NCBI GenBank assembly: GCA_964388035.1
Contig: CAYLZE010000074.1
Coordinates: forward strand, 1 to 24,698
Reading direction: 5' to 3'
From: an uncultured archaeon
Lineage (GTDB): Archaea > Asgardarchaeota > Lokiarchaeia > Sigyniarchaeales > SOKP01
DNA: 24,698 bases
Shown: positions 14,345-17,902 of the stretch, one piece after another
How the letters are laid out: every line of letters begins with the position of its first letter
How positions within the stretch are numbered: the first letter of the stretch is position 1
The notes under the pieces: generated by a model
Databases searched by the model: none
Told to the model about the DNA's origin: nothing
What the model saw: the letters and a program-made list of their open reading frames with translations, nothing else
Translations under genes and position numbers: made by a program

Positions 14345-15754
14345 TCATTCAAGATTGTCCAAAAGTTTCAGTTTTTTATCCTCGTGCATTTTATCCACTG
14401 CCGTTCTAATCTCAAGATATCGCTCTTTAGTTATAGGAAATCGAGACATCATTATTAATCCAATAAATAAAGCACTCATGGGGAATACACTCAACAATAA
14501 TCGAAGTCCAAGGATTGTGTTGGCTCCGGCAACGGGGTTAAAAACTGCCCATCCTGTACTCGTGAAAACGGTGCTAATAGACAAGTAAATTAAAATAGTC
14601 GAGAGCCGAATTATCAGGGCACTTACTCCATAATATCCTCCCTCTCTCCTGACACCCGTTTTTAACTCATCATCATCAGCTATTGTTGATATTATCGGAT
14701 CCCTGAAATATAAGGAACCTGAAAATCCTATTCCTATTGCAAAAAAAGTAATGAAACCAGAAATAAGATCTGATATGAAAAGATTTGGGATTAAAACGAG
14801 AATGAATATACTCATGCTGAGTATTGCTCCTCGCTTTAAACCAACTTTTAGTGCAACCCATTTCCAAAAGAATATGAAAATGACCGCAGAAATAAACGAT
14901 ATCCCTAATAATAAACTCAATAAAAAACTTTCCCCTTCTCCAATTCCCAGAACATAAGAACCATAGAGAGGTATGATCGTGGGAAGCATTCCAAATACAT
15001 ACCACGTGGCTAAATCAGGTATAATCCAGTAGAGGAACGTTTTGTTTTTAAGAGTGAATTTAATTGATTCGAAAAACTTAGGAGCATTTTTTGCATCTTG
15101 TATGAATTCTTTTCGTTCCTTAATGCCATACTTGATAAAAATTAGTGATGAACCGATTATAACGCAAGCCATGAATAAAGCTGCGAAGATATAATTAGAT
15201 GCATATTGGGGATTATCATACTTCGGAATGAAAAAACTGGGAATAATGAAAGCAAAAATTAGTGCAATGATAGAAAATATTTGTCGAATAGAGTTAGCTC
15301 GGGCTCTATCCTCAAGATTTTGAAACATTGCGGGAAAGACGCTTACTCTATTCACGGAATAAATTGTATATACTGTATCGAATAGGATTATAATGATTAA
15401 GAAATAAAGAAATAACGGTAATTCACCATTATTAGGAGGCGTCCATAATAAAACCATCAAAATAGCTAGTGGAATAAAAGCGAGCATGATGAAGGGTTTG
15501 CGCTTTCCAAATCGAGTTTTGGTACGATCGGATATAATTCCAAGAAGAGGGGCATTAAAAGCGCTCCATATTGACCATAGGATAAAGCCTAAAGAGATTA
15601 AAATAACATTTAACTGCTTTACGGCAAAATAGAATGTAAAAATGAGAAAAGTAAACATCTGAAACGCAGACACATCAGCAAACTGCCCAAAACTATATCC
15701 TAAAGCGTCTCTGGGATTATATTCGCTTTTAATTTGTTCAGAATCTCCTTTCAA
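14345..15754 (-). CDS. MFS transporter, GPH/MelB (MFS_2) family, lacking the TM2 cation-site aspartates
   Basis: 12-TM pattern, SDRTKTRFGKRKPF, DDDELKTGVRREGGYYG. TTG start with GAGG upstream. Confidence 0.9.
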   Translation of the reverse strand: MKGDSEQIKSEYNPRDALGYSFGQFADVSAFQMFTFLIFTFYFAVKQLNVILISLGFILWSIWSAFNAPLLGIISDRTKTRFGKRKPFIMLAFIPLAILMVLLWTPPNNGELPLFLYFLIIIILFDTVYTIYSVNRVSVFPAMFQNLEDRARANSIRQIFSIIALIFAFIIPSFFIPKYDNPQYASNYIFAALFMACVIIGSSLIFIKYGIKERKEFIQDAKNAPKFFESIKFTLKNKTFLYWIIPDLATWYVFGMLPTIIPLYGSYVLGIGEGESFLLSLLLGISFISAVIFIFFWKWVALKVGLKRGAILSMSIFILVLIPNLFISDLISGFITFFAIGIGFSGSLYFRDPIISTIADDDELKTGVRREGGYYGVSALIIRLSTILIYLSISTVFTSTGWAVFNPVAGANTILGLRLLLSVFPMSALFIGLIMMSRFPITKERYLEIRTAVDKMHEDKKLKLLDNLE

Positions 15755-15819: not shown

Positions 15820-16629
15820 CTAAAATATAATCGTTGATACCACGGGAAGATGATCAGAACCATATTCAGCAGGACAATCAAGGTTAGATATCATATCTTT
15901 TATAACATGATAATCTTGGATAGATTTATAACCTTTTACAAGAATATAATCAATACTTGCCCGATTATTTAAATCTACTATCGTTCCTGTATCAGTGAAG
16001 TATGTCAAAATAGGCTTTATCTCTTGAGATGTCCTTCCAAGATTTAAATCACCCGTTAGAACTGTAGGGTAGCTAGCTGTTGATAATTCCATGATTTTAT
16101 TCATCAAGAATTCCACCTGAACAAATTTATTTTCATTGCGAATGCCTAAATGCGTATTAAAAACATCCAAGGTAAGAGAAGGGCTTACTTGGATGACGCA
16201 ATGGATGAATACTCTTTCTTGTAACATGCTTGGGATTGGATATCCTTGGGCAGAAATTATTGGAAATTTGCTAAGAATTGTGTTACCCATGAGATGTTTA
16301 TTTTCGGGAGGATTATAATAGAAATAAAACATGTTGAGTCGTTTAGCAAGCCAAAATGCCATGTCCACACCTTGTGAAGTGATGCGCCCCGGTTCTACTT
16401 CTTGGAGTCCGACTATATCAGGATCTCCAACTAATATATTCTGAGCAATGCGTTCCAGGTTTAATAAGTCATCTCCACCTTGCCCAAAATGAATGTTGTA
16501 AGTCATGAAAGTAATCTGATTTTTACTCGGAGTTTCTGTCGGACTTTTAGCAAATCCCCATATCAAAAGAGAAGTAAATAGAGGTAACAGAAAGATGCAG
16601 ATAAATGCTATTTTAGCGTTTCTATTCAT
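15820..16629 (-). CDS. Membrane-anchored EEP (endonuclease/exonuclease/phosphatase) fold phosphoesterase, Cwh43/PGAP2IP C-domain-like
   Basis: N-terminal TM helix; MTYNIH, DIVGLQEV, ILSKFPI, NTHL, GDLN, IDYI and SDHLPV form a complete EEP catalytic set. Confidence 0.9.
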   Translation of the reverse strand: MNRNAKIAFICIFLLPLFTSLLIWGFAKSPTETPSKNQITFMTYNIHFGQGGDDLLNLERIAQNILVGDPDIVGLQEVEPGRITSQGVDMAFWLAKRLNMFYFYYNPPENKHLMGNTILSKFPIISAQGYPIPSMLQERVFIHCVIQVSPSLTLDVFNTHLGIRNENKFVQVEFLMNKIMELSTASYPTVLTGDLNLGRTSQEIKPILTYFTDTGTIVDLNNRASIDYILVKGYKSIQDYHVIKDMISNLDCPAEYGSDHLPVVSTIIF

Positions 16630-17902
16630 TAATTCTACCCTCTTTTTCCGTTTTTATATGAATTGAAATAATGGTAGTGATAGAGAAAAGGATTCCAGCA
16701 ATTAAAACTATAAAAGGGCCTGTTCCTTTCAATATTTCCAGTACATATGCCCAATCTGTGGACAAGATATGCATTATAATGAAAATTAAGTAAAAAACTA
16801 AACTTAGGGATAACGCATTTGATATTGTTTTAACTTTTTCCCATTTTAAGGTAATCTGCGTTATTTGAGCAAATAGTAGATAGAAATTTAAATACATTAT
16901 TATTAATGAACCAGAAAGCAAAATACTAATTAAAAAATTAGCAATTCCCTCAAGAAATAGAAATAAGAATAAAATGATTAGCATTAAACTATTTAAAATA
17001 ACCATTAGTTTTATATTGCTAATAACAGTACGGTCTATTTTTATTACAATAATGAGAGCTATCATGAGAGAAATGATATTAAAAATAGTATTCACATAAT
17101 AATTTGTTTGGGTATAATGTGAAATAATATTGGGATATAGGAATAAACTAAACATTAAGAAGAAGAACATGCCTATTCCTACAAAAATGAATAAATAGCG
17201 GGATGATAAAGGTTTCTTTTTACTTTCTTGAGAAATAGGTTCAAGAGAAAAGTTTAAGATACCACTTTTTGTAAAATATATAATGCCTATCGCTAAGGGA
17301 ATTTGAATAATCAACCATAGATATTGAGTTAGATACCAATAATCAGCAATTAACCCCGGAGGCAATAATGAAATATCTTCAGTAACCCCCAGAGATCGTA
17401 TTAAATAATCAATGAGAAACGCACTGAAAATAGAAAACATGACAATTATTAACTTGTTTTTTTTTTCTACGTGGATATCTTCTTCCATCCACTGTGATAA
17501 AAATATACTAATAAAAATGCAATAGAAGAGAATAGTGATACCGGAAAGAATCACCTGCCAAATATTAGGAAAATGGAAGGCGAGTAAAGTACGAGCTATT
17601 GCCGTTGTAAAAATAGAAAAATTCAATGTTCGTTTGACTCCCCACTTCTTACAAATAGTGTTAGTTAAAGCAGGTAAAATGTAAAATATTAGAGTAATTA
17701 AGATCATGAAATTTATAATAACGTCTTCTCCAAAGACTACATGAAACATGGCCACGTATACTCCCGGCACATAAGACCTTAAAGCTTGTATAAAGAAAAG
17801 AGTTAAAGAAATTAATATAAAAAGTAACTTGTATAATTGTTGAGAACCAATTTTCTGTTCAAATTCAGAAAATGAAAAATTTGATGCGATGGAGTCGTTC
17901 AT
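16622..17902 (-). CDS. Polytopic membrane protein (about 11-12 TM), translationally coupled to the EEP gene
   Basis: 426 aa hydrophobic ORF with an 8-bp ATGAATAG overlap with the EEP gene. GAGGGT lies just upstream of the EEP ATG. Confidence 0.85.
   Translation of the reverse strand: MNDSIASNFSFSEFEQKIGSQQLYKLLFILISLTLFFIQALRSYVPGVYVAMFHVVFGEDVIINFMILITLIFYILPALTNTICKKWGVKRTLNFSIFTTAIARTLLAFHFPNIWQVILSGITILFYCIFISIFLSQWMEEDIHVEKKNKLIIVMFSIFSAFLIDYLIRSLGVTEDISLLPPGLIADYWYLTQYLWLIIQIPLAIGIIYFTKSGILNFSLEPISQESKKKPLSSRYLFIFVGIGMFFFLMFSLFLYPNIISHYTQTNYYVNTIFNIISLMIALIIVIKIDRTVISNIKLMVILNSLMLIILFLFLFLEGIANFLISILLSGSLIIMYLNFYLLFAQITQITLKWEKVKTISNALSLSLVFYLIFIIMHILSTDWAYVLEILKGTGPFIVLIAGILFSITTIISIHIKTEKEGRINE

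Follow-up and report, generated by a model that had tools for sequence, protein, structure and literature searches.

PGAP2IP, the product of mammalian CWH43, and fungal Cwh43 function in remodeling the lipids of anchors made of glycosylphosphatidylinositol (GPI), and human CWH43 variants have been linked to hydrocephalus. PGAP2IP and the C-terminal two-thirds of Cwh43 are described by three Pfam models, PF23022 (6TM_1st), PF23021 (6TM_2nd) and the nuclease-like PF23226, while the N-terminal domain of Cwh43 belongs to Frag1, the family of PGAP2. A 2023 paper in the Journal of Biological Chemistry (PMC10704324) defined a subgroup of endonuclease/exonuclease/phosphatase (EEP) proteins around N-acetylglucosamine (GlcNAc)-6-phosphocholine/phosphoethanolamine phosphodiesterases. 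Cwh43p and PGAP2IP fall in this subgroup, as does an unstudied 'Asgard/Chloroflexus' subcluster that is 'divergent in size and domain organization', so that Asgard EEPs had already been placed beside Cwh43/PGAP2IP; sugar phosphodiesterases, not nucleases, lie within it and sphingomyelinases are its neighbors (PMC10704324). Here we describe two minus-strand genes, one for a polytopic membrane protein and one for a membrane-anchored EEP enzyme, from a 24,698-nucleotide stretch of contig CAYLZE010000074.1 (the window). A reading made from the sequence only had taken these genes for a split Cwh43/PGAP2IP-like pair. Our analysis indicates that they are very probably a split relative of single-chain proteins that join a 12-helix module, similar to the major facilitator superfamily (MFS), to an EEP domain. 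No paper on the split operon or on the MFS fold of the transmembrane (TM) module was found in the literature.

The window has a G+C content of about 34%, and its proteins have their close relatives in metagenome-assembled genomes (MAGs) of Promethearchaeota/Lokiarchaeota and other Asgard archaea. The genome to which it belongs comprises 5.47 Mb in 211 contigs and is 96.7% complete and 7.3% contaminated.

The split pair and its single-chain relatives

The layout noted earlier, two open reading frames (ORFs) on the minus strand with an 8-bp overlap, was borne out exactly by the ORF listing, and the proposed internal ribosome-binding site is present within the membrane gene (Table 1). We built a profile (A1) from 74 membrane-ORF homologues; among 1.84 billion representative proteins it retrieved about 36 proteins of 590-770 amino acids (aa) carrying both modules on one chain, all 36 with PF03372 and PF23226 at the C-terminus. 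These fused relatives originate from Anaerolineae, Thermoplasmata/Thermoplasmatota and Euryarchaeota, and the earlier remark that such fusions also exist in bacteria is confirmed by those from Chloroflexota/Anaerolineae. A second profile, built from the 36 fused relatives (A2, 643 positions), was run on all ORFs of the window's genome. It matched the membrane ORF at E 3.7e-50 (profile positions 10-375, residues 26-418) and the EEP ORF at E 9.2e-61 (profile positions 388-641, residues 7-268). The two ORFs therefore tile the fused profile colinearly, the membrane ORF corresponding to the two 6-TM modules, and the division into a multi-TM and an EEP gene is genuine, old and conserved. The split point lies between helices 12 and 13, at profile position ~376-386 in every split pair examined, and helix 13 of the fused proteins corresponds to the N-terminal anchor of the EEP subunit, from which the alignment to the fused profile starts (position 388).

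The window's own genome additionally encodes three fused paralogues (683-686 aa, contigs C48, C3 and C56), all of which pass PF23226. Together with other fused MFS-like and EEP proteins of Asgard archaea, Thermoplasmatota and Chloroflexota, they make up what PMC10704324 terms the 'Asgard/Chloroflexus group' (P0209, P0227 and L044, for instance, and P0293 and P0294 of the window's genome). These proteins are homologous to the pair over their full length and have the same catalytic residues and conserved outward loops. In contrast to them, the window version is broken between helices 12 and 13 and falls in a long-stemmed clade of its own.

Linkage of the two genes, expected from the earlier reading, holds throughout 37 related loci, each from a different GTDB species and labeled as Promethearchaeota, Odin-, Thor-, Hod- or Helarchaeota or, in one case, Deferrimicrobium. 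At every one of them the EEP homologue follows directly downstream of the membrane homologue, with both genes on one strand, which goes far beyond what chance would produce. Of the 33 junctions measured, 19 are 4-bp overlaps of the ATGA type and the others range from a 20-bp overlap to a 9-bp gap, and a GGAGG/GAGG-type motif precedes the EEP start in all but one of these 33. As the pair and its junction are conserved, while the flanks and the MFS_2 carrier gene found downstream in the window are not, the conserved unit is a two-gene, translationally coupled operon. Fused relatives of equal total length exist, three of them in the same genome, and could suggest that an assembly or sequencing frameshift has split one truly fused gene. 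However, 37 species genomes, assembled independently of one another, keep a stop, a new start codon and a Shine-Dalgarno-like motif at this junction. Because the split is conserved across loci, we reject such an artefact, the probability of which we regard as negligible.

All sequence motifs picked out beforehand are found in the 269-aa EEP translation: IHFG, DIVGLQE, GRITSQGVDMAFWLAKRLNMF, PPENKHLMGNTILSKFPI, PIPS, FIHC, LDVFNTHLG, DYILVKG, GDLN and SDH. Its AlphaFold2 model (pLDDT 88.7) has the EEP fold, with Foldseek E-values of ~1e-13 to solved EEPs. The single N-terminal hydrophobic helix (residues 3-26 in the model, 4-29 by hydropathy) agrees with the claim of a TM-anchored enzyme; in this helix P16 and L17 are nearly invariant, and its N-terminus is basic (R3, K6). 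Residues N45, E77, H160, D194, N196, D227, D259 and H260 are invariant in 44 homologues, and the full GDxN/SDH catalytic set is accordingly intact. The protein thus combines the PF03372 fold with the N, E, H, D-x-N, D and D-H residues by which the EEP superfamily is recognized.

The AlphaFold2 model of the membrane ORF (pLDDT 84.4, pTM 0.88) consists of 12 long helices, for which Foldseek returned MFS transporters only (probability 1.0, TM-score 0.54-0.60, 10-16% identity), including FLVCR2/1, MFSD2A, GLUTs and sialin. Likewise, the ESM Atlas places the ORF among MFS_1 clusters at 0.97. Under an N-in topology, 17 lysine and arginine residues fall in inward loops or helix ends and one in outward ones, so both termini are predicted to be cytoplasmic. 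The outward loops 3-4 and 5-6 have mean conservation values of 0.85 and 0.78, above most inward loops, and the cytoplasmic loop 2-3 contains, in the A1 consensus, a motif-A-like K-K-x-G-x-x-R without the Asp. The predicted 12-helix 6+6 fold and N-in/C-in topology are those of MFS transporters such as FLVCR1/2, MFSD2A and the GLUTs. Unlike these, the subunit is coupled or fused to an enzyme and has no Pfam MFS signature, weak MFS_1 matches being found in 3 of the 74 homologues (best E 3e-4). The sole match in Pfam and NCBIfam scans of the membrane ORF, to MamI, was below threshold and was rejected as spurious.

Relation to PGAP2IP and Cwh43

With PGAP2IP/Cwh43 the window pair shares the module order (six TM helices, six TM helices, a further helix and the EEP domain), the complete catalytic set and the predicted extracytoplasmic location of the EEP domain. 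It differs from them in being encoded on two polypeptides, in lacking the Frag1/PGAP2-like module and in belonging to a genome in which no GPI pathway was detected. The proposal of a Cwh43/PGAP2IP-like pair stands as far as it concerns the architecture, the match to PF23226 (62.9 bits, cut-off 27, residues 37-242 of the EEP ORF) and the relatives that reach the PGAP2IP TM models; a direct match of the window's membrane ORF to these models is not part of what stands. PF23021 is matched by one of the 74 close membrane-ORF homologues (E 4.6e-4) and by 11 of the 36 fused relatives (best E 3.2e-8). In the fused protein P0272 it scores 26.3 bits on the same stretch as A1 positions 240-412. Two fused Asgard proteins of one GTDB family (f25), L044 and L045, exceed the gathering scores of all three PGAP2IP models and are the only ones to pass PF23022.

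The membrane ORF is connected to these two proteins by a profile of the TM part of the fused family, which gave 148 bits for the window ORF, 45.3 for the N-terminal part of L044 and 27.4 for L045, against at most 4.9 bits in the shuffle control (50 shuffles per target). The profile aligns L044 and the window ORF in the same register, and a family profile of the first half scored 52.9 and 23.5 bits for the window ORF and L044, respectively. Taken over these intermediates, the pair appears to be a distant, split member of the PGAP2IP-like architecture. L044 and L045 are the most PGAP2IP-like prokaryotic proteins of the analysis and better eukaryote-related candidates than the window pair.

A number of results weigh against this assignment or against its functional reading. 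The window membrane ORF has no direct match to PF23021 or PF23022, and PF23022 has no match anywhere in the window's genome. Direct pairwise tests with L044 were not significant, neither by BLASTP (E 0.58) nor by hhalign of the A1 profile with L044 alone (E 0.31), and the link therefore requires the fused-family profile. The EEP ORF, which the sequence-only reading expected to fit PGAP2IP better than generic EEP families, scores no better on PF23226 than on generic PF03372 (67.4 bits over the full length of that model, residues 42-260), and this part of the proposal is not supported. In Foldseek, EEPs that act on DNA or RNA (TDP2, nocturnin) rank as high as any other match, the matches being generic (TDP2, nocturnin, CNOT6L, 4ruw, 3mpr and 3teb); a sequence search of the PDB found generic EEPs only and no solved PGAP2IP/Cwh43 structure. 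The flanks of the 37 loci contain no conserved neighbor, the commonest flanking family occurring in 8 of them, and provide no pathway context. Moreover, what the EEP domain does biochemically has not been settled even in Cwh43/PGAP2IP (PMC10704324).

Fused proteins of the window's genome and of other Asgard archaea fit the PGAP2IP models as well as or better than the window pair. For one fused paralogue, the ESM Atlas returned Chloroflexota clusters (0.98) and, in eighth place, a three-domain PGAP2IP cluster of ascomycetes (0.96), a proximity that we treat as a lead only.

In a tree of 60 rows, prokaryotes only, the window-type split proteins are monophyletic (SH-aLRT 99), on a long stem and apart from the Asgard fused proteins. 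The window-type clade is thus a side branch. A second split lineage, which comes from another Asgard family and has its break at an identical profile position, is separate from this clade and groups with a fused euryarchaeal protein. When one origin was assumed for all split forms, an approximately unbiased test on 30 rows gave p 0.044, the group having been named once the tree was known. In the 201 Asgard genomes sampled, the gene for the window-type membrane subunit was found in 12, none of them outside the GTDB family of the window (in which it occurs in 11 of the 40 other genomes), and the wider family, fused or split, was found in 83. This breadth, with few members passing all three PGAP2IP models, is relevant to claims of an Asgard-derived GPI machinery. 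The window pair is a side branch, no GPI pathway is detectable in its genome, and by itself it has no bearing on eukaryote origins.

Candidate function of the two subunits

We consider it reasonably likely that the pair forms a two-subunit phosphodiesterase or transferase at the outer face of the membrane, to which the MFS-like subunit presents a lipid or lipid-linked substrate; that the substrate is a lipid is plausible, though somewhat short of probable. One translationally coupled operon would yield a naturally split enzyme made up of an MFS-like 12-TM part, helix 13 and the EEP domain. Both ends of the 12-helix subunit would be cytoplasmic, and the EEP subunit would insert N-in through its single helix, which may pack on the 12-helix subunit as helix 13 presumably does in the fused forms. 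Judged from an N-terminus on the cytoplasmic side (R3, K6) and from the MFS topology, the EEP domain is predicted to face outside, where it would be held over the conserved outward loops 3-4 and 5-6. The transporter-like subunit might bind or laterally admit a membrane lipid or lipid-linked glycan and present its phosphodiester-linked head group to the EEP site, to be hydrolysed or transferred.

The outcome would be remodeling or turnover of head groups in the outer leaflet rather than GPI remodeling, as the genome shows no GPI pathway. Searches for PIG-M (PF05007), PIG-U (PF06728) and PigN (PF04987) found none of them in this genome, which is 96.7% complete, and matched no control genome either; a GPI substrate is therefore unlikely. 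The Frag1-like matches in the genome are two DUF998 proteins only, unlinked to the EEP genes, which score 22.7 and 26.1 bits against Frag1/DRAM/Sfk1, below its cut-off of 30.3. A glycerophosphodiesterase (GDPD) gene that follows one of the fused paralogues is a hint of phospholipid head-group metabolism.

Among the known systems nearest to the window enzyme are the GlcNAc phosphodiesterases, soluble EEP enzymes secreted by Clostridia, which take phosphocholine or phosphoethanolamine off GlcNAc-6 (PMC10704324). Common to both are the EEP subcluster, metal-dependent phosphodiesterase chemistry and action outside the cell, which is predicted here. However, the GlcNAc phosphodiesterases lack a TM partner and their signal peptide is cleaved off, whereas the window EEP is anchored by a helix and obligatorily paired with a 12-TM protein. 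It lies outside their definition as soluble, secreted, single-domain enzymes, its conserved N-terminal helix being equivalent to TM13 of the fused forms.

These characterized members of the EEP cluster, sugar-specific phosphocholine/phosphoethanolamine phosphodiesterases, are in line with the main rival explanation, a cleave-and-import salvage system in which the outward EEP domain frees phosphocholine or phosphoethanolamine from surface glycans or glycolipids and the MFS subunit imports the product. The choline/ethanolamine transporters FLVCR2 and FLVCR1 are the top Foldseek matches of the membrane model, and the MFS_1 placement in the ESM Atlas and the motif-A-like sequence in loop 2-3 would also suit an importer. 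Yet the Foldseek ranking is flat, with E-values of 2e-6 to 7e-5 across very different transporters, such that FLVCR in first place is unspecific, and MFS_1 is matched weakly by so few of the homologues. The strict one-to-one coupling, which in most relatives goes as far as covalent fusion, is uncommon between a hydrolase and an importer and typical of a single enzyme, and the most conserved loops point outward, toward the EEP domain. We hence judge such a salvage system to be unlikely. The nuclease-rich character of the EEP superfamily, the top Foldseek ranks of TDP2, nocturnin and CNOT6L, and weak NCBIfam matches to exonuclease III would favor a membrane-tethered extracellular nuclease or generic phosphatase that merely lies beside an unrelated transporter. 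This is very improbable: the partnership is not incidental, since each ORF is homologous to one part of the single-chain proteins, the EEP ORF passes the subfamily model PF23226, and the exonuclease III models reach 19-20 bits against cut-offs of 99-183.

The architecture common with PGAP2IP also raises the question of whether the pair is a true functional counterpart, and a member of the ancestral lineage, of the eukaryotic GPI-lipid remodelase, acting on an archaeal inositol-glycolipid anchor. A 2026 paper in Nature (PMC12872458) describes components of GPI-anchor synthesis and maturation as Asgard-derived; neither CWH43 nor PGAP2IP is named in its text or in the supplements examined. The Atlas neighborhood of the fused paralogue, near eukaryotic three-domain PGAP2IP clusters, would fit such a counterpart, while the failure to find PIG-M, PIG-U and PigN, and Frag1-like matches confined to DUF998, argue against it. 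The window-type clade is, furthermore, a long side branch confined to one GTDB family in the Asgard survey, and fused forms are common in Chloroflexota and Thermoplasmatota. A GPI-remodeling role and ancestry for the pair are in our view improbable, and we continue to favor the two-subunit outer-face phosphodiesterase or transferase.

A bolder extension would regard the MFS-fold module as a lipid-handling device, either a lateral gate or a flippase, supplying membrane lipids to a phosphodiesterase or transferase on the outside, and the Asgard machine, with its fused and split paralogues, as the prokaryotic root of the eukaryotic GPI-lipid remodelase. We think this rather improbable, but if true it would offer a tractable two-piece model for a eukaryotic enzyme of unsolved mechanism. 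The natural two-piece form separates the transporter-like from the catalytic module, each of which can be expressed, mutated and assayed alone, allowing tests of lipid delivery by the 12-helix part.

Neighboring genes and variant loci

The coordinates of all features are compiled in Table 1.

Table 1. Features of the window (first nine rows, window positions) and of related loci (locus:positions)
Feature	Position	Strand	Description
Membrane subunit gene	16622..17902	-	426 aa, ATG start; ORF listing
Catalytic (EEP) subunit gene	15820..16629	-	269 aa, ATG start; ORF listing
Overlap of membrane stop and EEP start	16622..16629	-	8 bp, translational-coupling junction
TAG stop of membrane gene	16622-16624	-	within overlap
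ATG start of EEP gene	16627-16629	-	within overlap
GAGGG, Shine-Dalgarno-like	16638..16642	-	inside 3' end of membrane gene, 8 nt before EEP ATG
Anchor-helix coding region of EEP subunit	16552..16620	-	~residues 4-26; equivalent to helix 13 of fused proteins
EEP catalytic domain	15823..16521	-	residues 37-269; predicted outside cell
MFS_2 (GPH-family) carrier gene	14345-15754	-	co-oriented, 65 bp downstream of pair; TTG start, preceded by GAGAGGA motif
Fused paralogue, own genome, contig C48	L003:148-2205	+	neighbor: convergent MFS_2 carrier
Fused paralogue, own genome, contig C3	L004:1207-3267	-	neighbor: co-oriented Rce1-like CPBP protease
Fused paralogue, own genome, contig C56	L005:142-2193	+	followed by co-oriented GDPD glycerophosphodiesterase gene
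L044, fused, 630 aa	L044:949-2841	+	PF23022 42.2, PF23021 83.1, PF23226 109.4 bits; genome G111
L045, fused, 658 aa	L045:907-2883	+	PF23022 28.7, PF23021 64.4, PF23226 100.1 bits; genome G178
Second split lineage	L046:530-2574	-	membrane subunit PF23021 27.1 bits
Second split lineage	L047:814-2612	+	membrane subunit PF23021 24.0 bits
Second split lineage	L050:808-2900	+	membrane subunit PF23021 19.8 bits
DUF998 membrane ORF, contig C29	L052:1267-2022	-	220-251 aa; passes DUF998
DUF998 membrane ORF, contig C91	L053:1401-2063	-	220-251 aa; passes DUF998
Ras-family small GTPase gene	L017:290-832	+	upstream of split pair
Fused paralogue, 689 aa	L013:810-2879	+	directly upstream of split pair
Second membrane-subunit gene	L031:4585-5478	+	after EEP gene

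The MFS_2 carrier gene downstream of the pair was considered as a further part of the unit and rejected, as outside the window it adjoins the pair in L043 only, a relative with 71% identity. An MFS_2 gene also adjoins the own-genome fused paralogue P0293.

Genes flanking the 37 loci include those for FAD oxidase/CCG, flavodoxin, TatD, Ras-like GTPase and histidine kinase proteins. A Ras-family small GTPase gene (PF00071, 140 bits) is co-oriented beside or near the split pair in seven loci, upstream in L016, L017, L018 and L019 (directly adjacent in L016 and L018) and directly downstream in L011, L012 and L026. A fused paralogue directly precedes the split pair in L013, and a second membrane-subunit gene follows the EEP gene in L031. 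The membrane gene of L029, L031 and L037 is broken into two pieces, possibly through assembly errors or decay. Finally, the Asgard-type split pair of L041, recorded in a bacterial MAG as Candidatus Deferrimicrobium sp., is probably the result of mis-binning and not of gene transfer.

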